A DNA stretch of 64,000 nt, from assembly GCA_051047955.1 (NCBI GenBank), contig JBPGPT010000010.1, forward strand, positions 62,001-126,000. Direction: 5' to 3'. Made by a program: the position numbers and the translations under genes. Under the pieces are notes generated by a model. The model made no database searches, was not told the DNA's origin, and saw nothing but the letters and a program-made list of their open reading frames with translations. This DNA is from Cystobasidiomycetes sp. EMM_F5. Its lineage: Eukaryota. Shown one piece after another: positions 14,798-64,000 of the stretch. Every line of letters starts with the position of its first letter. Positions within the stretch are counted from its first letter, which is position 1.

Positions 14798-17700
14798 ATG
14801 CTCCATCAATCAACGTCTGGCTTCACGCCCCGCCCTCGCCCGCCCAGATCAAGGTCTCATCAGCAGACGTTGAACAGCGCGCCGCCAGTCACTTTGCACG
14901 GGGCAAACAAGGATATTTCAGAGATGGTCAGACAGAGCATTCTTGAAAGTAGGGACGTAGGCATCGTAGCACTGGACACTCCGCAGTATACGCCGCCCCT
15001 TGGACAGCTGGAACAGCCAGCCCTAAGCTCGAGCACCAGCCAAAAGATCGGCAAAGAAGTCATGTTGCCCTCGGGTGACAGCAACACTTCGCTACCACGC
15101 TCGTCCAGCCAGCGTAGTATACGATCACCTGAAGAGCTGGAAGAGCTACTATACCAAGCTCACAGAATCATCCAAGACCGCGAACGAGGTGAGTTTGCAG
15201 TCGAGCCGAAACGTCACGTGCGATTGATTCTGATTCCACACATCATCTGCAGACCTGACACTGGCAGCCTCCATTGGCAAGTCCTTGCTCGATAACAACA
15301 CTGCATTACGTGCCAAGCAGGATGCACTGCTCCAACGAGTTCGACGAACATCCATATCGACCCAGGCTAATCAGGATCTGTTTGATGCATACGCCGAAGC
15401 GAGAGCCGAGTTTATCGAAGGACGTCCGCCTAAGAGTCCACGCACCTCGATGGTGACTGCCTCTCCGTCCATGCACGGAAGAAGCTGGTCGAATGCATCG
15501 CAGCCTGCCTCTCAGCATGGTAGTCCCGTGCGACGCAAGATACTGTCGCCTACAAACTCTCCTAGAACAACCAGATCTTTCGTTTTTCGTCAATCTGGAC
15601 ACTTCCAACATTCTCGCGATGGCGGATCTCTTGACTCTGCGGCATCGTCAATGTATGATGCGCCAAGCTTGCGACAATCTTCCCGTTCTTCAGCGGAACG
15701 CAACGAATTGCGATTCTCTCAGCCAGCTAAGACACTGAATCTCCAGCAGCAGGCGGCTCTTTATATGCAGAATGCAGAACTGGAGGACAAACTTACGGAA
15801 TTGGAGAATGAGCTCAGTCGGGCAAATGTAGCGGGAAAGAAGAAGTTGCGAAAGCTCAACAAGGAGCTCTTAGGCTTGCGTAGAGAACTTGATGACGCGC
15901 ATCTACACAACATCGAGCTCGAACAGCACCTGCATGCCGGCAATGGCCATACGACAGTACACGAACGACAGAAATGGAGCGTAGACCAACACAGCAAGGA
16001 CAGCCGTGATAGTGCAGTGTTCGACGACTCCATCCGCGATAGTATTCACGACACAGCTGCAGTGCCCCCGGACAATGATACTGACAGTCCAGAGCCGACA
16101 CATCACGAAGGCGGTAACGCAAGTATGATCTCAGACTTGACAGAGTGCAGCTCTAGCAATAGCGTTTCATCCCAGACTCACAGCGGGCCAGAACTCGCGG
16201 CGTTGTTGGCCAAGGTCGAGGAGCTTCAGCAAGCCAATGCTGAGATGACTGCGGCACGGGCAACTGCGGAAGCAAGACTAAGCGAGGCTGCCCAGCAATT
16301 CGACGAGATGAAGCGAAAATATCAGTTCCTCGAAGACCGAGTGATTGAGGCTGAGATGCGAAGTCATATGGTCATCGGCTGGGAGAGTAGGCGACCTGCC
16401 ATCGAATGGCATCCCGAAGGCCAAACTGTGAGCTGGGTACATTTTGTCTTAGCGTCATTGTCACTGATGTAGTTCGACAGGACGGATTGGGCGAAAGTAC
16501 ATCTACCGTAACTTCTTTACCTCGTCGAGCGCTAGGTAACCGAGCTCTTGTCGAGCGTCATCGCCGTTTCTCTAGTCTATATGGAGCACCTCATATCGTA
16601 GAGACGGGTAGACTGTCAGCTGCGCAGCTTGCAGCTCACGACGGGTCGTGCCATCAAACACCCTTAAACACGGTACATACGCCGGAGAAGCGCTCTCAGT
16701 CGGTGTCTAGATCATATGGCGAACCTCAGTTAACTTCGCCTACAGCATCATCGAAAGCTTCCGCCCGGAAGTCGGGTAGCACCTTTCATGATGACTGGTC
16801 GCCAAAAAGTCATCCGGGCAATGTACTGGATGCCTTAAGGCGAGTAGAGGAGGACGCAGCGGCCATGCGAGAATTGGGAAAGATGCAGGCAAAGGTCCGT
16901 GATACTAGCGAGGCTAGCTTGAATAACGTCGAGTCTGTGGAATGGAATTGCGTTCAACCGCAACGCTCCCGCTCCGCTTCGGCAACGCCTTCGCAACCCA
17001 CCGACGCACATCCAACCTCGCCCACGAGCCCGGGAAGTCTTCTCCGTAAACTTCAGTGTGTCGCAAGCGAACTGCAGTGCGTACCTACTCAAAGAGATTA
17101 CGGCGCTGGAGACTATAGCGCCGCTTCTTCCCTTGCAACTATCGGCCAGCGTTCGCATGATGCGGCGCGGGCTGCACAGCAGATTGTGGCTGCCATGATG
17201 GCGCTCCAGCTGCATAAGTCCGCTGAAGCGCCACAGGACGCTCTCCTGCCGCCAGGACCACCCAGTGCCGAGGCGTACGAGTTGCTGGAGCAAGCGCTTA
17301 CGGATCTCCCGGTGGAATGGGCGGATGACGACATACGTCTCATTCGGCAAAGCCTCCTGCGCGACATCGAGGCCGGAGAGTCTGGCGATCGTAGGCAGAC
17401 TCAAGGAGGTCTTGCATGGGCCTACGTCGATACTGAAGAGGACAACGACAAAAACGATCCATGGAAAGACGAAGGAAAGGGCAGGCCTGCTTTGGAGAAC
17501 GAGAAAATTGCGAATGAGCGGGAATTAGCGGAAGCTCGTGCCGCGAGAAGACAGCGCAGGCTTGCTGAATTGGCATCTGAACTATTGCAAGAGGAGGGTC
17601 CTGAGTATGCTTCGTCATTCGTACGCGATGTGCCACTCCAGCTACTGCGTTTTGGTTCAATGGATGCTAGCGAGGACAATTCCGCCGAACTTGCAGCTCA

Positions 17701-17998
17701 ACAAGATGACGCGCTCGCGATGGAATATGACAACATTGACGCAGAATGCGCACAAGGAGCTTCCGGTACAGACTACTGGCCAGTCACGCGCAGAGCTCGC
17801 TACATGCCATCCGTAGTCGCAGTGCGTGCACGAACCGCTTCAGCAGACTATGTCAATTCTTGGCTACTTTGGTCGCGCTTCCTCACCGCGCTTACTGTAG
17901 CTGTTGCAGTCAGCGTATGGCGAGGTCCCGAAGTCGGGCTTGGTCTTCCTGCTCGGCGCCATGCTGGTCGGCAGTTCCCTCGCCAGCGACGTCCATAA
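14798..17998 (+). CDS. Large coiled-coil protein with CC1-box-like motif and C-terminal transmembrane anchor
   Basis: 3 exons (introns 15189-15252 and about 16428-16480). Spliced ERDLTLAASIGKSLLDNN; heptad segments; C-terminal WLLWSRFLTALTVAVAVSVW followed by a 25-aa tail. Confidence 0.75.
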
Positions 17999-18208: not shown

Positions 18209-20041
18209 CTACGACTGAGCAGCCAAAATCATTTCCACTTGGCCTTTCGTACTGGCTAGCGCGTCCTGCAACCTAAGCTCCAATGTTACCTTTTGTCTAA
18301 TCTTGCCGAACATTGCGTCTATTGCGACGCTCTGGCCTAAAGCAGGTTGGTACATTTCCATGATGACGTTGAGGACATTGCAAGTCAGGGTGTTGAAAGT
18401 TGGGTCTGCGATGAACCTGTGGAGGAACTTGAGGATAGGCATCAAGGCGACTTCGTTCCTAGCATTTAAAGCGATATGCAAACCGTCCCTATGCATGAGC
18501 TCGTTGATGAGCGCAAAAACTGGGGCTGGATCGTTTGTATGCAGGACGGCGTCTAGAGCATCTCCATAGCGGAAATATTTGAGCATCCGGTCCCATTCTG
18601 ATAGCCTCTTCTTCGACTTTTTGGCAACAACCTTGATTTCACCATTTGGTAAGCGCTTGCTTTCTGTATCGTTTGCCGCTACGCCTGTGTCATGCACAGT
18701 AATCGCATTTGCCGCAGCGATGACTGCAGCAGCAGCAGTCTCGGCACCACTGACCCGGCCAGACTTTGCAGCCGCTTGTTCAGTAGCTGACAGTTCCCTT
18801 TGACGGACCGTCAACTCGCCAGTCGATGATCCGACAAGCAAAGTCCCTTCATCGGGAGCCATGGCTAAGCTGAGCACGCTGCCAGACACTCGCATCGTCT
18901 TGCCAACTCGATAATCGTCATTGAGATCGTAACTCTTTACGAGGCCATCGAGACCAGCTGATAGCAGCCGCGTTTTGCTGTGTCCGGTGTACGTCTTTCC
19001 ATCGCCCCACTCCAGACAAGTGACTGTCTTCTGGTGATTTGACATAGCTCTTAAACATGAACCAGTAGAAAGCAGATCCCACACCCGGATCACCGGTCCA
19101 CCGGCAGAGACGACCTGAGTCCCGCTCGGATGCACCAGGATCCGCTCGACTGGATGACCATGTCTAAATGACATGACTTCCGCAGCCATCCCGTACTCGT
19201 CGCTGCCATCAATTGGCATCCCGTCATTAATGTTGTCGGTACTGCCTCCTATCCGTGTGTCCCATACTTTGATAGTGCCATCATACGATCCGGAAACAAT
19301 GAGAGATGGATTTGAAGGGACGTAGCTGGCCGTCCGGACGTAGTCGCTATGGCCTGCCAAATATGATAACTGAGACGATGTAGCAAGGTCGTATACTTTG
19401 AGGGTTGTATCATCGGATGCGGTCAAGAAGGAAGGGCTGCTACTGCTTGCGAGAGGGGAAAATGCTGTGGTATGAACAGGTCTGAACGCAGCAGCGATGG
19501 ATTAGCTTTGACATAACATACTCCACGAACGCCATGATATACTTCTCTTGACTTACTGTTTATGCGCTCGAATGGATCGCAGGACCGCCCTAGAATTGAT
19601 ATCAAAGACCTTTTGGAGAGTGAGCTATGAGCGAACCCAAGCATATGTCTGGTCTCCTCACTTGTACCAAGCCTGAATCGTCTGCCGCTACGATTAGCTT
19701 TCCGTCATCTCGAATATGACCGCTCCTTGCGATTTCCTTGAATTTGCTAATAGTTTTGACTACTCGGTTAGTCTTGCTGGAGTATATCTGTATCCGCGTT
19801 CCAGAAGTGACAGCATAGCGGTAGGGCGATGTTTGCGAAAAGTGCAAGTTCACAATTGGAGCATACGACTTGACGAAGATGGAGGACTGCCAGCCGGAAC
19901 GTCAGAGGTCTGGCAAGCAGCCACAACCTTGTATAGACGCACTCGAAAGCTCTTCCAATATCGCTCCTCGACTTTGTTTCGAGCTGAAAATGTCGCGCTG
20001 ACTCTGGCTCTTCTTTGCGGTTGCGTCGCCTGGAAGTCCAT
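18209..20041 (-). CDS. UTP15: U3 snoRNA-associated protein 15 (WD40 + UTP15 C domain)
   Basis: RYWKSF, YAVTSGTRIQIY, GHSDYVRT, NHQKTVTCL, WDRMLKYFRYGDALDAVL, ELMHRDGLHIAL. Confidence 0.93.
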
Positions 20042-21582: not shown

Positions 21583-23375
21583 TCACGCCGAAGATGCAGC
21601 TACAAATTTGCGCATTTCTCCCGTCACTCGCTTGTCCATGCTCACGTTGTCTACCAACTCAGGCCAGCTAGCCACAGCAGTAGCGGCGTCATTCCGGATG
21701 AAATGGCCTTGTAGCGCTGCCATGCTGACAGACTGCCCGGCTTGCTTGCTCTTCTCTAGCATACTCTCCAGCTGTCTGCTGAGTTCCTGCAAATCCTCCC
21801 CTGGTAGACTGCCATTATAAAATCTTGAGAAAAGAGTACGGGCCTGGTACGCTGAAGTGTCGTCAAGGAGTTCTTTCAAGTCAACGCGTCCGGGTCTTAT
21901 CAAGGCTGGATCCAAGCGATCGATGTGATTGGTCGTCATGAAGAGTATACGCTGAGACGTCGAAGATGCAACACCGTCAAGCGCGTTCAAAAGTCCAGAA
22001 AAGGTCACGTTGCCACTAAATCTGTAACGAGATTCAGTCAAAGCAAGAACGTAAGGTATGACGAGGACATACCCATGTTCGTCGGCTTGTTGACGGCCTG
22101 AAAATGCTGCATCTATATCTTCGAGGAGGATGAAACTCCGTTCCGGTGCATTCACTAAGAGGTGGTTGAGCTTGTCATCGGTCAAGCCGCGTTCGGACAG
22201 GTTTAATACACATATGTTGTACTCTAGCGAGCCAGCCAGTGCTTGAATGAAGGATGACTTGCCAGAGCCTGGCGGACCATGTAAGAGAATGCCTCGCCGG
22301 TAAGGTATGCCTGCGAGTACAGAGACGAAGTTTAGAGAGTTTGGGCGCAACAGACTGATGCATGACTCACCTCTTTCAGCATACCATTTACCACGCTCCA
22401 TGAAATCCGTCACGTCTTTCAGTATCCGCTCCTTTACGCCTTGATCCAAAACGACGCTATCAAGCAATCGACGTGATCTCGGTTGTCCAAACGGCCGCCA
22501 TTCAGGACCCCAAGCGGTGTATATGACAATTTTCCCTTGCTGTGATTCCTTTGCTAATTCTTGTGCCTCTTCCAAGAGCTCTCTGAAGAGGCTCCTGTCT
22601 TTGGAAAGAGCAGTGAGGGTGACAGTCTCGAAAGGCGTTCCAGTCGTAAGATCCATCATCTTGCCATCTCGCTCTCGCTTTAGCTGGAACCAAGCTTTGT
22701 TGAACTTGAAGAAATGTGTGCCCGGTCCCGGAACTAGGCTGAAGCTTGTATGCGTGCTACCATCGCTTCTCTGTTCTTTCACAGTCTCAACAGCCAATTC
22801 ATGGCTTCGGATCCGGCCAGCTAAGCCAGACATGGCACTCTGCTTGGCTGAATGCGCAGACATCCATTGTAGAAACCATATGTACGATGGGTCCTTTGAT
22901 GATATTTCTAGCGAGACGAGTAATCGCCGACGACCTAGGTATGCTGCCTGAACTGCCGATTTCCGGAGGATTGCCAGAGCTGCTCCTACGCCCTTACAAA
23001 GGACAATTTCAGACACTTTATGAGGCCTCTGCTCGCGAGCTACGCACCATCAAACCGAAGCCAGCAGAGAAATATGGACTGCAGCCAAATTTAACCGCGT
23101 TAGCAATACGGCTTGACGTCAATCCGATGCGGCGCTCACTTCTGCTGCAACATGTTTGACACCGTTCCTCGAATACCTCCAGTCTGCTTCTGCTTCTCGC
23201 CATCGCTGGTAATCTCAACGGGTGACCGCCTTTCCGCATTGTTCAGATCTTCTATTGTAGTCTGACTGGTCGATGCTATTGGAGCATGGTCCCTACAAGC
23301 ATCTGGCGTATTGTCATTCGTTTGCTGTCGGGCAGATGGACTCGCAGAACGTCCAAAGCCGCCAATGGCTGGCAT
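21583..23375 (-). CDS. BCS1: Mitochondrial AAA chaperone Bcs1
   Basis: PYFSAGFGL, WGPEWRPFGQPR, Walker A HGPPGSGKSS, LLEDID, FSGLLNALDGV, FMTTNH, DPALIRPGRVD. Start codon approximate. Confidence 0.95.
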
Positions 23376-32335: not shown

Positions 32336-32580
32336 CAACTCACCTGCGGCTTGGCTGGCAGAACAGCGTCGCCGTATGCAGCAGTTTTCAGAGATGTATC
32401 GTCCAAAGCTGTCCCGATATCCAGCTGGGTGTACGGATTCAAGCTCGAAGCGGCCCCTTATACGCCGGCAGAGGCCTGATCAAAGCTCAATCGTCCAAGT
32501 AGCCGCCGTGGAAGACACAGAATTTTGCCAGACTCGTCTTGCTTTTCATTTCACTCACACGCCTGATTGCACTCCAACAC

Positions 32581-35297
32581 ATGTCCCGCTCTCCCTCGCA
32601 GCTCCCGCCCGACCTCGTTCTCGTCACTGCTCTCTCGATCGACTCGCTGACGCTGAGACCAGCTCCGTGGGCAAACACTGGCAAATCTCAGCCAGCTCTC
32701 CTCGACATCTACATCTCCACTGACGTGTCCGCAGCGGGAGCTTCGGAAGATCTTACAAAGAGCATAAACTATTCCTTCATTTCAAAGGGACTTCGAAGTT
32801 TCTTCAGTCAACCAGCACAGACAGAGAGAGTATTTGATGTGCATGAACTAGCATCCACAGCTGCACAAGCCTGTCTGTATCATTTCGACACTCCTCTGCA
32901 AACCATCCAACAGATTCGTATAGTCGCAACACTCCCAGACGCGCTTCTCCACGGCGGAAAGCTGTCATCGAGTGCTACCCGTACATATAGCGATTATTTC
33001 GTTCAAGACAAGCATATCACTATCCTACCTTCATCCTCAAACCTTCGTCTTGACAACCTTCTCATCGAAGATCTGCAAATACCCACCATTCTCGGACTGA
33101 ACGACTGCGAAAGAGAGATTGAGCAGCCGCTCTGGGTAACGGCAGAGACTTGGCCAAACGACAGCGGAGTATTAGACAGTTCCAGTATGTCTTGGTGTGC
33201 AAAGACTCTGCAAGACACGATATGGCAGGTCCGTTACAATGATCTGTTCACAATTCACATGTCTGACAGGCGTCGATAGCACGTCCGCAAGACTAACCCG
33301 CTGCTTCTAGAGACGTTTTCTCCATCGTTGGCACAAGCCATCGTTGCGCGAACAGGCACGCCCAAAGTAAGGGTACGACTGGACAAGCCGAAAGCGAATC
33401 TGTGGACGAGAACGACGGGCGTACAAGTCACGCGGACAAAAGACTACTTTCTCCGTAATCCGCAAGCTGTACATGAGTCGTTCAGGACACTCGTCTCCAG
33501 ATCGACAGATAACGCAGGGATAGCATCTTCTGATAACATCGAGAAGAGTAGGCCTAGAGCCGATGGAGAACTCAACCACCCTCATACCGCTTATATAGCC
33601 ATCGGAGCAAATGTCGGAGATAGAGCGAAACACATCCGTCGAGCATTGAGATATCTGAACGATGCTAGACTGATGCAGTCAAGCTCGTCAGCCGGCACAT
33701 CCAAAGCTACGGAAGCATTCATAGCCGGTTCGATGGCTAGCACGCCAGTAAAGTCAGAGAATGACACATCACCCGTCAATGCGTCACTCCTATCACAAGC
33801 GCTGCAGAAGACGGCCAATGCTGTCAAGAACGTTGCGGGAAATGCCAATGAAGCCGGAAGGGTGGCCAGAGTTTCTGATTCAAGTTTCTTGTACGAAAGC
33901 GAGCCGATGTATGTGCTCGACCAGGATCGCTTTCTCAATTGCGTAGTCAAGGTATGATTATCACAACTATGCCCTACGTCGTGCAATGCTAACATGCCTC
34001 GTAGATCTCGACATCTCTTACCCCACAGCAGCTCCTCAAGCTCTGCAAGTCCATCGAGGCGCATATTGGACGTCGCAAAACAATCAATAAAGGTCCGCGG
34101 GAGATTGACCTCGATCTTTTACTATACTACGAAAATGGGTATCAACCCGTCATCCTGCGTGACGATGAAGTCGACCTTACGCTCCCTCACCCACTCATCT
34201 CCGAACGCGAGTTTGTTCTACGCCCGCTGGCCGACATTGACGAAGGACTCACAATTCCACAAAGCGGAGCATCCATCCGAGAATTGCTTGAGCGTCTTAT
34301 TGCCAAGACTGCGGGGCAGCCCAGTCAGTTGCGACAAGTAACGCCTGTGTCACTGTCGCAAGACACAAACGAGCCTTCTTTACCACTCCATCTATCGCTC
34401 TCATCACGGACACTCATCATGTCAATTCTAAATGTTACCCCAGACTCCTTCTCAGACGGAGGATCTTACTCATCCATCGATTCAGCGGTAGCAGCCGCAT
34501 TGGAGCACGCCAGAAGCGGAGCAGACATTATTGATATCGGCGGTGTCTCCACTCGACCTGGATCACAGCATGTCACTGAAGAAGAAGAATTAAAACGCGT
34601 CATTCCCGTCATCGAAGCTATTCGCGTTTCTGGGAGTGGTGTTCTGCTAAGTGTGGATACGTATCGAGCGAGCGTAGCCCGCAAAAGTATCGAAGCTGGA
34701 GCGAATATCATCAATGACATCTCCGGCGGTCTGCACGATCCTCTCATGCTCGAAACGGTCGCAGAGTTGGATGTTCCGTTCATTCTGATGCATATGCGGG
34801 GCAAGCCAGAAGAAGTAAACGTAGCTGCACACGCAGAATACGATAACGATGATCCTGTCAGTGGGGTCCGCAGAGAGCTGGCTGAAGCGGTCCGTAAAGC
34901 ACTTCATGCGGGTATCAAAAGATGGAATATTATTCTGGATCCAGGTATTGGATTCTCCAAGAACTTACAAGGCAATCTAGCTCTACTTCGCGCTCTACCT
35001 CAGGTCACCGGCAGAACATCATCAAATAACCTACTTTTACCGTCCGCCAGCTCACAGCCGGCGATGGATGATGCGGATTCTGCTCTTCTTCGCGGCTTTC
35101 CGGTACTAGTCGGTCTATCCCGTAAGAAATTCATCGGCACAATCACGGGACAATTAGACCCTAAGGAACGTGAGTACGGAAACGCCGCTCTGCACGCTAT
35201 AGCCATAGCCAATGGGGCCAACATCATCCGCGTCCATGACGTGCGAGCGGCAAAAGACGCAGCGGCTGTCGTCGATGCTCTTTATGGACGAACGTGA
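32581..35297 (+). CDS. FOL1: Trifunctional folate synthesis protein (DHNA-DHNA-HPPK-DHPS)
   Basis: DHNA DLTKSINYS and ILGLNDCEREIEQ; HPPK AYIAIGANVGDR, LYESEPMY, GPREIDLDLL, PHPLISEREFV; DHPS ILNVTPDSFSDGG, ILDPGIGFSK, GLSRKKF, IIRVHDV. Confidence 0.96.
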
Positions 35298-52714: not shown

Positions 52715-53787
52715 TCATGAAATACCTTCCGCGAAGAGATTGAAAGGCTCAAAGTAGCCTGAGTCTACGCGACTACAATTATCGTAGCTATCGAAGTTTT
52801 GCAATTGCCTGAGGTTCAACGTCAGCTTTTCCGGCGTTAGGCTCAAGCAGTTTGCACTCACAAGGCGAAATCCTCGATGACCGGAATATCCTCATTGTCA
52901 CTGCTTTGCATTGCCACCCTAGGCTTTTTGTACAAGGATGGCTTCCGTGAGCCTTTGCTTGCAGGTCTTTCTGCTTTTGATGGCTTCTGATACGGTTGGG
53001 CTTTTGTCCTCGCAGCCGACCGTTGGCGAGGACGGTGCGGTGGCGTGGACGGAGGGGGTGTAGGCGATGAGCGGGAGGAGCAGGGTGAGGAAGAGCTGTC
53101 GACGAGTGAAGGAGGGACGGAGTATTCCTGTATGAGTTCGTCGACCCAGTCACCGACCTTCTTGCGCTTCGGTCCAGCAGAAATAAAGTCGCGTACAGCT
53201 TGCACGGCTTTGCGCGCTTCCGGGTCGACCATCGTTGACAGGACAGGGTCGTCTACTTGTTGCATGAAATGGTGCATCGTCTCTTTGTCGCTCTCGCCGT
53301 ACTTGCGGAATAGGTCATTCCAGCCTGAGCGCTTTCGTTTATTGACGAACCAAGTAGTGAGCTGAGAAGGGCTATGGTCCGGTATCGACTGCAACAGCCA
53401 ATCGCGTCCTGCATCCGATACATACGGCCATTCCAAATGAGCTATAAACCAGGAGGACCAAGCGCAGTAGGAGTCGACACCTCCCCTTTGCGAAGCGGAA
53501 GAGGTTAGGGTCTGTTGGGTTTCATTCCTATACTTCCGTTCTGCATCGACGCAGATGTTTTGTGCCAAAATGTACGATTTAGCGATGGTTCTAATGTTGT
53601 TGAGTATTTCGTTTACGGCGGACAAGCCATCAATGTCAGGGCTCGAAACGATATGATGTAACCAATCTGCCTCCCAGCGTTTCAGTCGTAGTGATATATC
53701 CGATAGAGCATAGCCAGCTGGGATCTGGCAAGTGTCGTGGTGGATAGCTAGTAGCCGATTAATCGCGTCGTCAATGCTGGTGCACAT
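52715..53787 (-). CDS. HD1: HD1 (bE-like, TALE-type) mating-type homeodomain protein
   Basis: WFIAHLEWPYV..QLTTWFVNKRKRSGW; N-terminal helical variable domain; intron 52809-52861 and short last exon. 3' end tentative. Confidence 0.88.
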
Positions 53788-53961
53788 GGGTCGGTTGTGT
53801 GGTCTGATTGTAAAAGAAGACTTCAGTTCGGAGGGCGCATCGAAATGCGGGTGAGGCCCGTGCATACAAAAGCCATTCAATCGCCTGTTATATTCGCCAC
53901 AAGCCGGAAAGGTGCAGATGAGTCTCTTACCGTACACTGCATTCAGCATTCTGACAAAACA
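53788..53961. promoter_or_regulatory. Short bidirectional promoter between HD1 and HD2
   Basis: 174 bp between the inferred divergent ATGs; typical basidiomycete HD locus arrangement. Confidence 0.6.
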
Positions 53962-55478
53962 ATGGAAAACATTCAACCGTGGTGGGACGTTCTTTCGATT
54001 TGCAGAGAGGCCCTCGATCTGTTCGGGCCTCTCAGTGCTGGTCCCGCATACTCACCCCAAGAGGTTGATGAGCAAATGGGAATGATGCGACTTGATCTAG
54101 CTGCAAGGATCGATTCTGTTACCGGCATATACCTGGCAGAAGGCGTGGATTTGCGGATGGCCATTGCACTAAACGCGGAATATCTGGCAGCGCTGTCTAC
54201 TGCAGCCGACCAGCTTGAGCAAGCATTCGCAGCAGCATTTAGGAATGTCAGAGGCGACGAGGGGCAGCTGCATCCAATCAGAAAGGCTCTATGGAGTAGA
54301 TACGTGGAGGCTTTCGAACAACTGAAGCAAGATACTGCCAAGGATCAGTTGTGTGCGATTAAGAAGCATCTGTCGCCTAGCGTAAAGCCGCCATGCGAGC
54401 CAACAGCCGTCCTCGAGACAGCCTACTCTCACTGCACACACCCTACTCCCGCCGAAAAGGAGCGTCTCGCTCGAGCTTGCGGCCTAACTGCTCGTCAGGT
54501 TAATACATGGGTGCGCTCAGGCCATTCTCCGACCGTTAGAAGCTTTTGTCAATGACTGTTATACCATGCTTCATGCCACTTCAGTTTGCAAATCATAGAC
54601 AGAGAAAGGGCGCCATCAAGTCGGGAAGCGACAAAGCAGCATCCTCGAAAAAGCGGCACACGAGCACGCCCCGCAAATCTTCCTCGGCTTCGGTGGCGTC
54701 ACTCGCGTCTTCGAGCTCGAGCATCCAATCTCTTTCATGGTCCGCAGCGAACTCTCCCTGTCCATCTCTTGCTACTTCCGTGTCCAGTTCCTCTCTTCCT
54801 ACATTGTCAAGATCATCCTCCAACACTTCTTCATGGACAGAATCCCCACCAAGAGATACCACGCCGGACGTGTCATCATCTTTCATCAACCCTGAATATT
54901 TGGACCTGAGCTACTCCAACTCTTGCATTCAAACAATCGAGCCTGCCCTTTCCAGCGAGGGAGCGCACCATGATATTCTCTCTCGTATATCGCCGTCAAG
55001 TAACTGGCTTAATCACCTTCACACGTCCGATGTGGATGCCAGTCACAAGGACAGCATTCAAAGCTACGATGTATCGCAGTGGTCCACCTTTGGTTATGTC
55101 CCCCGTGAAGAAGTCGCTCCTCTCGCTTCTACCTCGTCGAACATGTTCGACCTTGGTAACAGCTGGGCCGCCCCAGCGGAAGGCGCTGCGGCGTGTGCCG
55201 TGCACGGCAGCAAAGATAGCACTGATCAAGACTACTGGACATGTCTCATGCAGTCCGTCGGCATTGATACGGAGGGTACAGCTTTTCTGCCCATTGATTC
55301 GAGCCTCGCATACGGTAGCGGGACTCTCCCTCTACCCGGACCCACGACCGACAATAGTAATACGCTTGACAACTTATTAAGCGATATCGATGCTACACTG
55401 TCATGGTTCCAATGCCCTCCTCTAGCCCAGTTGGAAATGGCCCCGCAATCCGTTCCAGTTCGCCCTAGTCAGCCGTAG
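53962..55478 (+). CDS. HD2: HD2 (bW-like) mating-type homeodomain protein
   Basis: TAVLETAYSHCTHPTPAEKERLARACGLTARQVNTW|FANHRQR (intron 54511-54584 between W and F); Ser-rich and acidic C-terminus. Confidence 0.88.
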
Positions 55479-60205: not shown

Positions 60206-63200
60206 TCACAATTTCGCGCTTTCATCGTCGTGCAACTTTTCGACGGCAATCACTGCCACTTCCCCTGTCCCTGCGAGAGGTCCGGCTGCGGCCTGTTGTG
60301 TTTCGACCGGCCTAGCAGGTAGAGCAGGCGGCATAGTGTGAGTAGACGCGGCTATCTCAGATGACGCGACCTTTTCTTTGTCGATGTTTATCGATGTTTC
60401 TGCAAGTATAGGATGCGAATGAAGGTCCGTCGCAGGAGGAGGCACGTCCGCTTGCGTAACGACCACCGAAGCGACAGCAGGATTTGGTGAATCTCCGATG
60501 ATATTCTCCTGTTGCTGCAAGCGAACAGTGCTGGCTAGTAGTGATGACGAGACAGCTTCAGGCCGCATTGGCAGAGCAGGTGGGGTAGACGCGCGTAGCT
60601 CTTTTGCGGCGGACGAGCCAGGCGAGGTACCTCCACCATTGTATGAGCCGCTTGAACTCGCGGCGAATCTCCGAGATTCGTCCATTCCGGGGATCGCCAT
60701 CATAGCAGCCGGGCGATAGCCCGTCATGTCTGCCGTCCCAGACTGCCGCCTGTTGTGAATAGAATGTGCAGGATGCACAGGTACAGCTGACGGCGGTGGT
60801 ACGCGTCGAATGGCCGTAGGATTTGCCGGAGACGGGGAAGAAGGCAGTGTAACGGCTTCTGCCGTAGAAATCGAGGTAGTGGGCAGAGCTATACTAGGCT
60901 GGAAGTGGGAGAAGTTGCTTGGCGAGGTTGATGTTTGTGACTCGGATTTGGCATTCCCATCTAGACTGCCTGCACGTTCTGGCCTCGGCGAGCCATGTTC
61001 GTTGGCCTTGCGTGCCATACTAGACATGCCACCCAGCTCAGGAGTTCCGTTGAGATTACCGAACGAGCTGTGTGAAAGGGTCTCCTGCACAGCTTCCGCG
61101 GAGCCGTCGGGTTGAGTAAGCTTTGCGCTCTTGTATGCTTGCCAGCGGTTGCTCCATTTATTCATGGCATCTTTAGCTTGAGTCATCCCTTGATTGACAC
61201 TGGCCTGTATGGCTTGTTTATCGCTCGCTTTCGCCTTCCAGGCGTTGAGCAGCTGACTCGTGGTGTGAGTGGTAGTAGCTGAGGAGGAAGCAGAACTCGA
61301 AGCTGTCTGAGAAGTCGTACTGGGAGCAATTGATCGCAAGCTGGATGCGACCGATTTTTCCGATGTTCGACTTGCTACTGAGGGCGCGATCGACGGTGTC
61401 GGAGATGTTGTCCGCTCAATGAATTGTGCATCAGCGATAATCACATCATTCAAAGTGTCAGTCCCCGTTATTTGCGTTTTCGTGGTCGGTGCAGATACTG
61501 AAGAATCGGCGCCAGGAACATTCACTCCAGCTGCATTCTCGGGGTTTAGGGCAGCAGGGAAGGTTGCAGGGTGGGTATCCGGTACTTTACGTACACCGAT
61601 AGATTCTTCCGATGACGATGAAGCCCGAGCTCTGCCGTTTTCGAGTATGCCACGGAGGCGGTCTGCAGCCGTATCTGAAGCATCGCCACTGACTGTACTT
61701 AGCGTATCAGTGTATCGTGTGGATGACGAAGCTAGACGATACGACCGGCTTGGCTCATCCGCCTTCAGGTCAGTACGTGACTTCCGGGGTCGCAGGTCTT
61801 TATTGATTAGCGAAGGTAGATTCGGCTCGCTGTCTGCTGCATGAACTTTTGTTTTGGTAGGCGAGGATGAAGATGTGGTCCCGAACCATGCTCGCTTCCG
61901 AATTGGATCGCTTTCCTTCTCTGCACTGCCTTCCGGCGGCGCAGATTGAGTGCTCTTCAATGAGGCATCAGACGTTCTTCGAGCACTAGGTGTGTGTTGG
62001 TGTAGATTGCCGGTATCTTTCTCGTCGCTGAGCTTCGGGTTTGGCACTCCAGGTGGTATGCGTGGGGTTTCCTCATCCGCGTCGAGATCGTCTGTCGGAG
62101 GTCGAGTCTCCTCGGAGAGAGGATCGCGTACCTCCCTCAAGCAGTCTCCAAATATTCCAGCCCGGTGAAGGTATGGCTTGGTATCGAAAAATGCGATATC
62201 ATCCATGTTTGGCATGACGATGGACTCGGCAACCTGTAATTGAATATATGTCAGCCTATAAAATACTTTGATGGCTGACGATTGCCATACAAGCTCGCGT
62301 AAACGAGATTCCATTGGCTTCGTAACCATTGACCACTTGATCTGCCTAGTCGAAACGACTGGCTCGACGCTAATGACCATTCTCGGCGCATGAGTAAAGG
62401 AAAACCACAGTCGATTAGAAGGTGGAGGGTTGATCTTGAAGACCATTGTGCCTTCAAGCTCTTTCAAGACTACAGCCAGTACCAAACTAACACTATATGA
62501 TTTGAAGCGGGTTCCAAGATCTGCAAATCCATCCCGTAAGTGTGAGTCATTATTCCTTGATAGCGACGTTGCTTACTCAAGGTAGCAACTGTACCTATAG
62601 TAATACGAAACTCGCCGACATACTTGACATGCATTTCCATGCTTGCCGAACCATCAGACTTGAGCTCGCGTAGTAACGGCTTGCTGAAGAATGGTGTTGT
62701 GACTCCGACGTTGGCTTCCTTAACGACAATATCGCTCAAGAAGCTGGGCTTGTTGACTTTGTTGAGCTTCCGGACTAGCTTGCGGATAATGTAGTTCTCC
62801 ACAGCAGATGTTCCTGGCAAGTCCAGTCGCATCAGCCAACCATACAGTTCCGTGTGGAGGTGAAAAAGAGGCGTACTATACACAGAAAAAAACAAGCGGC
62901 CGATCATGGCATTCAGCCAGCGGGTCGGTATAGGATCCGGTTGTTGGTCAATAGCATCAACAAGGCGAGTCATGTCCGTTGGATCAAACAGCAGCCTGTC
63001 CTTGGCCAGATCTTCGGGATGTTCCAGCCGTGAGGCATTCAGGAGGTGATGATACCAGTCTTCTTTCTGGTGCGTGTATGTAGTCCAAATGTACCAATTC
63101 TGGTTCTGCCCGTGTTCCGATGTGTCTGCGCCTGTACCAGCATTTTGACGATGCAGCGGATTGGAGCCATTTGATAGATACAAAGGATCGCGCGGTCGCA

Positions 63201-63813
63201 GGCATATCGCGTTGCGCTTCATGAAAAGCTCTCCTTCTATCAGTCCTTCCGGGTAAATGACGACATCACATAAAGTAAGCGGGATGGCTGCGCATATTTC
63301 CGCTTCGTGTTCGTCAGAATACAGGTATAGCGCTGTATCCTTCAAAACAGCGTAGTAGCGGTCCTTGTACTTTGCTCTTTTGGGATCTAGTTTACGGGAT
63401 TCCATAAATGACCGAGTAAACGAGTTGATGGATTCCATGTAAGTCCCTTTCGCAGCCGGTATATCCGCGGCGACACTGCTAGAAGAAGCTGCATTCGGTG
63501 CTGCCCCATTGCTAGCGACTTCAGTCGCATTTGCTACCGCCGTGGCAGCAGCAGCCGAATTGAATGTCCGGCGAGCTATTATCCAACCACGCGGAGCTCT
63601 ATTGGGGCTGCCCGCATCTTTCGTTACAGACGTAGCATCGAAGCCATCGTCGACCTTGTCCTTGCCGGTGAGAAAGTCACGGCCTCTGTCAATTGCAGGC
63701 CGAAACGACGTATGCCGGTAGTAGATGTAGACGAGCGACGCTGCAAGCAGGATGGGGAGAAGCGTCACACCGCCAAAGATGTAGGCCGCAATGAGAGTCC
63801 ATGGCAGTCCCAT
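60206..63813 (-). CDS. NVJ2: Nvj2/TEX2-like TM-PH-SMP lipid-transfer protein
   Basis: N-terminal TM AYIFGGVTLLP; PH YYAVLKDTALYLY..KEDWY; SMP TRWLNAMIGRLF, KINPPPSNRLWFSF, VMPNMDDIAFF; long disordered tail. Confidence 0.9.
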
Positions 63814-64000
63814 CGCATGTGTACAGTCATGGGCTGGTCATTTGGTAGTGACCTGTGAGACATGGACAGGCGTGGCAAACGAGCAATGACGGATTGGACC
63901 GTAGGCGTTGACACGCTTTGTACGGATTATGCCGGAGCAGACTCTTTCGTCTCTCATTATGCATTGCGAATACAACTACTACTCCTCGAACGTTGGACTC

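Follow-up and report, generated by a model that had tools for sequence, protein, structure and literature searches.

The window analysed here, a 64,000-nucleotide stretch of contig JBPGPT010000010.1 from Cystobasidiomycetes sp. EMM_F5, contains a three-exon gene at positions 14798 to 17998 of the forward (+) strand, with its ATG at 14798 and its stop codon at 17996-17998, whose predicted 1027-residue product resembles a dynein-dynactin adaptor carrying its own C-terminal membrane anchor. By homology, the gene belongs to a large, old and uncharacterised family of the Basidiomycota, Glomeromycota and Mucoromycota, with a design that probably corresponds to that of a CC1-box dynein-dynactin adaptor anchored directly in the membrane of an organelle. 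The reading preferred for the EMM_F5 protein, to which we give a probability of about 0.5, is that of a tail-anchored adaptor or recruiter in which the first helix would dimerise and offer its AASIG groove to the dynein light intermediate chain (LIC), while a downstream block of the form JxxE-hydrophobic would bind dynactin p25. The C-terminal helix would be inserted post-translationally into the membrane, leaving ~980 residues in the cytosol; LIC would bind the first helix, the subsequent coiled-coil segments would lie along dynactin, and the downstream block would contact p25. Full processive activation by this protein is less certain, because no HBS1 (site 1 for binding of the heavy chain) was found and its Spindly-type block is weakened. 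An organelle-embedded recruiter comparable to TRAK or KASH5 had been proposed in an earlier note on this DNA; the likeness to the CC1 box, the tail anchor and a Spindly-type block support the proposal, whereas the box proved to be conserved in only half of the relatives and the basic tail, from which a location had been deduced, proved to be lineage-specific.

The model of introns and exons is a prediction based on homology. The coding region comprises exons at 14798-15188, 15253-16427 and 16481-17998 (stop codon included), and relatives align with its product over the full length. Intron 1 (15189..15252; 64 nucleotides, GTGAGT...CAG, phase 1) lies inside the CC1-box helix, and its removal joins ...RIIQDRER to DLTLAASIGKSLL..., so that splicing creates a continuous helix, as the earlier note had predicted, which aligns without gaps to the same helix of 84 relatives. 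Similarity in three close relatives of the open reading frame (ORF) type (P0002, P0003 and P0009) begins exactly at the DL that follows this junction, as expected if the intron position is shared. Intron 2 (16428..16480; 53 nucleotides, GTGAGC...CAG) marks the point at which two reading frames meet, with conserved blocks on either side; splicing may instead use another donor in the same frame, 16437 in place of 16428, which would lengthen the product by 3 residues. The start codon is backed by a conserved N-terminal M...PRPRPP. It is extremely improbable that the CC1-like box arises by chance or from an erroneous gene model and that no such protein is made: the box appears only upon splicing, but both introns have canonical boundaries, the helix formed by splicing has its gap-free counterparts, conserved blocks span the product from M1 and PRPRPP through to a C-terminal RGP, and a public ORF-type protein (P0001) is identical to part of exon 2. 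The PRPRPP motif itself (residues 11-16; 14828..14845) forms part of a pattern, (T)PRPRPPA(K/R)xRR, that is kept within ~20 residues of the N-terminus in basidiomycete forms; that an SH3-type domain, or one of another kind, docks there would be a guess at its role.

An exhaustive HMMER search with exon 2 returned 114 proteins at E<=1e-3, and in about twenty of these the alignment begins with the box's first residue. The named relatives of this long form fall in the Pucciniomycotina, Ustilaginomycotina and Agaricomycotina, and include the rusts Puccinia, Melampsora, Phakopsora and Cronartium, together with Rhodotorula, the ustilaginomycotine genera Violaceomyces, Parajaminaea and Sympodiomycopsis, and Tulasnella. 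One match, the compact 505-residue protein P0112, led in turn to 76 further proteins of ~450-600 residues from Glomeromycota and Mucoromycota (77 with the query). The long and compact groups are joined by profile-profile comparison at a probability of 99.7% (E=5.5e-27) over the CC1 helix, CC2 (with its basic K/R-rich run) and CC3. No ascomycete occurs among the named matches of these searches, which were not designed to prove absence; in the Protein Atlas, a 312-member basidiomycete cluster without a Pfam family was found, and two ascomycete clusters at 0.88 are leads only. No fungal adaptor of the CC1-box, HAP1_N or TRAK-like kind turned up in the literature searches, and neither PMC2262911 nor PMC5064798 mentions a fungal CC1-box adaptor, in keeping with the earlier suggestion of a new fungal adaptor type. 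CC1-box adaptors as such are already known; what would be new is an integral-membrane one conserved over three fungal phyla.

The CC1 helix of the EMM_F5 protein (residues 110-165, split by intron 1; 15125..15356) is supported by a match to HAP1_N, by the family profiles and by AlphaFold2, which models residues 1-30 of the exon-2 product with block-mean values of the predicted local distance difference test (pLDDT) of 90-96. Its core, DLTLAASIGKSLL (residues 131-143; 15188-15290), contains AASIG and thus keeps the canonical AAxxG. A profile built from 17 full-length basidiomycete relatives matched seven distinct sequences of the PDB at E<=1, with TRAK2 (9dgv, 6.9e-6) in first place and three BICDR1 entries (6f1t, 6znm; 1.9e-3 to 4.1e-3) making up the rest of the top four, each aligned precisely on the CC1 box. 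The Glomeromycota/Mucoromycota profile placed BICDR1 (BICDL1; PDB 6f1t, 6znm and 6f1u) at the top four of 31 matches, with E values from 1.7e-10 to 8.3e-7 over residues 104-143, making it the best solved match of the family, and reached TRAK2 at 1.4e-3. In the aligned Glomeromycota/Mucoromycota forms the box is near-invariant and reads KERDLxLAAEIGKSLLENN. HAP1_N (PF04849) was the only recurrent Pfam match, found in 20 of 21 basidiomycete-type relatives (profile positions ~70-113; best 32.9 bits) and in 23 of 24 Glomeromycota/Mucoromycota relatives (best 32.2 bits), in every case under the cut-off; in 7 of the latter 24 it extends over 100-230 further profile positions, and precomputed database labels give PF04849.19 for many relatives. 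The resemblance to a CC1 box noted earlier is therefore weak when judged from the EMM_F5 copy alone, whereas at the level of family profiles, which retrieve BICDR1 and TRAK2 at this very box, it is more than chance.

A second feature of dynein-dynactin adaptors, absent from the earlier note, is a Spindly-type block situated between the coiled coil and the anchor. In compact forms this place is taken by a conserved (K/R)xTLLSELENEW; of the 76 Glomeromycota/Mucoromycota proteins that have 400 residues or more, 57 show L[LS]xE[LF] in it, 38 of them exactly LLSEL. Basidiomycete-type forms read LGSEL in 46 of 112, although the regular expression used for them also catches a few coiled-coil false positives; the Puccinia forms listed have LLSEI, and the nearest relatives of the EMM_F5 protein, P0004 and P0008, have LASEI/LASEL. 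Spindly motifs bind dynactin p25 and follow a consensus of leucine, hydrophobic residue, any residue, glutamate and hydrophobic residue, represented in BICDR1 by L347, L348 and E350 (10.1101/2022.03.17.482250); a later report updates this consensus to JxxE-hydrophobic and places the motif of BICD2, LLSEL, at residues 336-340, past a long unresolved loop (bioRxiv 10.64898/2026.04.25.720804). The BICDR1 sequence in the PDB reads ...TSLLSEIE... at this site, so that its LLSEI is paralleled by LLSEL or LLSEI in the fungal relatives, and BICDR1 and the fungal family share the same order of box, coiled coil, break and Spindly-type motif. BICDR1 is soluble and binds Rab6 cargo. The EMM_F5 protein differs from it in having its own membrane anchor.

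That anchor is the sole strongly hydrophobic segment of the protein (residues 983-1002; 17861..17920), with the best 19-residue stretch starting at residue 983-984 and a Kyte-Doolittle value of 1.63, and it is followed directly by an RGP motif and an Arg-rich 25-residue tail (17921..17995) with 7 Arg that ends in basic residues; the last 26 residues, counted from the Trp before RGP, carry a net charge of +6. Since its one membrane helix is less than ~30 residues away from the C-terminus and further hydrophobic segments are lacking, the predicted layout is tail-anchored with ~980 cytosolic residues. Just before the helix lies a block conserved in relatives, GTDYWP....ARYxPxxV (residues 951-975; 17765..17839), and AlphaFold2 merges the pre-anchor and membrane segments into the last helix of the exon-3 product (residues 443-481; block-mean pLDDT 86-97 over 441-480). 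The C-terminal membrane helix with a short Arg-rich tail had been seen in the earlier note, and both the helix and the RGP/GP motif directly after it are conserved across phyla, which hints at a specific luminal or in-membrane contact. The suggestion that the basic tail favours mitochondria or peroxisomes builds on a feature of one lineage: basidiomycete-type tails have a median of 22 residues and a median net charge of +5, whereas for those of Glomeromycota/Mucoromycota the medians are 11 residues and -1, and a basic, Trp/Arg-rich stretch is found instead before the helix, on its cytosolic side. Tail ends are not conserved in the family, and in rusts they are 70-100 residues long. The charge around the anchor is thus reversed between Glomeromycota/Mucoromycota and Basidiomycota, and this reversal may reflect a changed target membrane.

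Since the basic tail is lineage-specific, a KASH-like location in the nuclear envelope is as conceivable as one in mitochondria or peroxisomes. KASH5 and ZYG-12, membrane-anchored dynein adaptors of the outer nuclear membrane, are composed of an N-terminal LIC-binding module, a coiled coil, a C-terminal membrane helix and a short tail, an architecture shared by the EMM_F5 protein, where the LIC-binding module is putative. ZYG-12 binds LIC with a Hook domain. In KASH5 it is EF-hands that bind LIC, unlike the CC1-box-like helix proposed here, and PMC10071310 describes KASH5 as an adaptor that activates dynein and assigns it a putative Spindly motif. A speculative extension, which we regard as quite unlikely, gives the family the part of a KASH-like protein of the outer nuclear membrane that has been missing as the partner of the SUN protein Sad1 in Basidiomycota and Glomeromycota/Mucoromycota; it would be a TRAK/BICDR-type CC1-box adaptor coupling nuclei or spindle pole bodies to dynein. 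According to PMC6034078, the tails of KASH proteins typically terminate in PPPX, fungal KASH proteins are without a common sequence motif, and in Cryptococcus none could be identified. The EMM_F5 tail lacks a PPPX end, and the exon translations of the gene gave no Pfam KASH match, a weak test because of the missing common motif. In a broader form of this idea, a tail-anchored CC1-box adaptor may have been the ancestral design in opisthokonts, with the soluble TRAK and BICDR types as its descendants.

Between box and anchor, heptad-like segments such as those described earlier were seen at residues 294-355, 444-504, 635-664 and 863-892. The second coiled-coil segment (residues 294-355; 15741..15926) includes a conserved basic run, GKKKLRKL, at 15834-15857, and at the third (residues 444-504; 16191..16373) the family has the motif ALVxQLLxKIxELEETN. 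The AlphaFold2 model of the exon-2 product, computed from a 30-row alignment, has confident helices at its residues 2-54, 158-230 and 311-378, which are 53 (plus ~20 residues from exon 1), 73 and 68 residues long with block pLDDT values of up to 97. The exon-3 product is modelled with a mean pLDDT of 58.8 and a predicted template-modelling score of 0.25, as isolated helices without a globular domain; one of its helical parts is the conserved block YELLEQAL..LPVEWADDD (residues 786-806; 17270..17332). A homologue search with exon 3 among longer proteins gave no match. In compact relatives the coil is more contiguous than in the EMM_F5 copy, which is an expanded form with long disordered inserts and a weakened Spindly-like block, VASEL (residues 716-720; 17060..17074), where relatives have LGSEL, LLSEI, LASEL or LLSEL at the same position.

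Several of these properties tell against dynein-dynactin recruitment by the EMM_F5 protein. The likeness to adaptors is limited to ~40 residues and a 5-residue motif. Exon 2 matches HAP1_N with residues 1-31 on profile positions 79-109 at E=0.024 and 14.3 bits, against a gathering cut-off of 33.9 bits that none of the scanned proteins attains; for HAP1_N, the profile check proposed in the earlier note thus gave widespread matches, all of them below threshold. A single-sequence search of the PDB with the EMM_F5 copy found no adaptor up to E=10. Within VASEL, S-E-L is kept but Val occupies the key Leu/Ile position, and the block lies ~580 residues downstream of the box. The conventional HBS1 (or CC2 box) consists of QxxH/Y and an acidic patch ~34 residues after the first Ala of the box, and QxxH/Y sits 34 residues after that Ala in both BICDR1 and TRAK2; no Q..[HY] was found in the 60 residues past the EMM_F5 box, and among box-bearing relatives QxxH/Y is rare at an offset of 32-36, with 2 cases in 41 basidiomycete-type proteins and 4 in 71 from Glomeromycota/Mucoromycota. 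The confident exon-2 helices are parted by stretches of 89 and 76 residues with pLDDT below 50; the coiled coil is accordingly interrupted, as had been cautioned, although the '~140 disordered residues' are rather ~90-100 and a second break is added. A CC1-box adaptor would be expected to have ~200-270 residues of coiled coil between the LIC site and the Spindly motif, compared with three parted helices here, and BICDR1, with its CC2 box Q150/H153 and continuous coiled coil, contrasts with the EMM_F5 protein, which has no QxxH at that place and long disordered inserts.

Two of these objections are softened by what is known of other adaptors. The missing QxxH is compatible with adaptor function, because atypical heavy-chain sites exist in some adaptors such as NIN (bioRxiv 10.64898/2026.04.25.720804). 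In TRAK1, too, the first coil is extremely short and gives way to a break (bioRxiv 10.64898/2026.04.25.720804), and Spindly motifs are reported often to come after coiled-coil breaks or long loops (10.1101/2022.03.17.482250; bioRxiv 10.64898/2026.04.25.720804), so that the double interruption is less damaging than feared. The same shortcomings can also be read as those of a tail-anchored coiled-coil tether or scaffold, golgin-like or located at the endoplasmic reticulum or spindle pole, which has no motor role and resembles adaptors in its CC1-box and LxxEL motifs by convergence of short sequences. Such a tether would account for the brevity of the similarity, the lack of a conventional heavy-chain site, the long disordered linkers that break the coiled coil and a C-terminal half without a globular domain and with short conserved blocks only; the database names of the relatives are, moreover, all 'hypothetical' save one automatic 'HAP1 N-terminal domain-containing protein'. 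It is nevertheless considered unlikely, as two independent family profiles have CC1-box adaptors, and not generic coiled coils, as their top matches, exactly on the box, and the two adaptor motifs follow one another in the canonical order, both near-invariant in the aligned Glomeromycota/Mucoromycota forms.

The conservation of the box bears on a different alternative. Among 85 aligned boxes, A[AS]xxG is present in 43, other small residues (mostly TSxxC) in 32 and neither in 10, so that conservation of AAxxG among orthologs, on which the earlier note had staked its proposal, holds for half of them and fails for the other 42, which adds to the case against LIC binding. In many relatives of 650-950 residues (P0022-P0111) T-S-x-x-C replaces the Ala and Gly of the box, with the remaining helix, the LGSEL block and the anchor conserved; the nearest Protein Atlas cluster of one such form is basidiomycete, and the TSxxC forms are inferred to be those of Agaricomycotina. 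Ala-to-Val changes in the box abolish LIC binding in Spindly and BICD2 (PMC5379953). According to PMC13545989, Milton is without the CC1-box alanines and drove plus-end (kinesin-type) transport only, a loss that the TSxxC forms parallel, and residues 205-260 of the TRAK coiled coil bind kinesin-1. It is conceivable, if quite unlikely, that the family are membrane-anchored motor adaptors whose N-terminal helix serves mainly a role other than LIC binding, such as kinesin-1 recruitment or self-regulation as in Milton/TRAK, with dynein binding absent or secondary in many lineages and perhaps here. The 42 boxes without A[AS]xxG in an otherwise conserved helix and a HMMER second domain, not significant, that puts the family CC3 motif on TRAK2 238-303 agree with this account; the EMM_F5 protein, however, keeps the canonical AASIG box, TRAK2 is not retrieved by a CC3-only profile, the conserved Spindly-type block points to dynactin, and no kinesin-binding motif was identified.

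A correspondence between CC3 and the kinesin-binding part of TRAK was considered in its own right and rejected, as CC3 searches of Pfam and the PDB do not support it. Eight CC3 pieces gave generic coiled-coil matches in Pfam, with HAP1_N in 1 of 8 (E=0.005), and a CC3-only profile of 20 sequences had no TRAK among its 35 PDB matches up to E=10; both results also detract from a TRAK-type adaptor. Matches of the CC3 profile to NDEL1/NDE1 in the PDB at E ~0.1 were judged to be chance. The Miro-binding Milt/TRAK domain (PF12448) gave no match in the three exon translations of the EMM_F5 gene at E<=1 or in 21 relatives at E<=0.1, and whereas TRAKs reach mitochondria via Miro, members of the fungal family are predicted to be inserted in the membrane themselves. 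The established coiled-coil adaptors of filamentous fungi, HookA/Hok1, connect dynein to membrane cargo (PMC3998801; PMC8730729); they use the Hook domain for LIC and FTS/FHIP for endosomes, and have neither a CC1 box nor a membrane helix. Other fungal organelles have been described as hitchhiking on endosomes.

The genes around 14798-17998 are ordinary housekeeping genes, none of which bears on its function. UTP15 (18212-19501) and BCS1 (21586-23049) lie on the negative strand, and further neighbours encode a nitronate monooxygenase, Cut8 and an RSE1/CPSF_A-type propeller protein. FolB, HPPK and pterin-binding (DHPS) domains are found by Pfam on three consecutive ORFs of the positive strand (32503-35294), which we take to be the pieces of a single trifunctional gene for folate synthesis, split by introns, such as fungi usually have. 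Two divergent ORFs encode homeodomains, one on the negative strand (52861-54051; Homeobox_KN, E=8.8e-7) and one on the positive strand (53755-54552, perhaps to 55475; Homeodomain, E=1e-6, and Homeobox_KN, E=2.5e-6), an arrangement over 52861-54552 that presumably represents a mating-type locus of the basidiomycete HD1/HD2 (bE/bW) type. Close to the end of the window, an ORF on the negative strand (62473-63837) has PH-domain (E=4.4e-4) and MMM1/SMP-like (E=7.5e-3) matches in Pfam, both weak and below cut-offs, and may encode a lipid-transfer protein of membrane contact sites.

If the preferred reading is correct, a membrane-embedded protein with a CC1 box and a Spindly motif would provide a second, direct route of dynein recruitment beside that of Hook/FTS/FHIP on early endosomes, and absence of the family from ascomycete model fungi, if true, would explain why it has gone unnoticed. 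The coexistence of AAxxG and TSxxC forms amounts to a natural experiment on how far the CC1 box can drift, in which TSxxC, as a natural 'Milton-like' variant, could reveal the helix function on which selection acts. The family also bears on the gap left in Cryptococcus by the lack of an identified KASH protein (PMC6034078). Were the KASH-like role to hold, the family would account for the nuclear migration that depends on dynein in these fungi, with the conserved GP motif just past the membrane helix as its contact on the luminal side.

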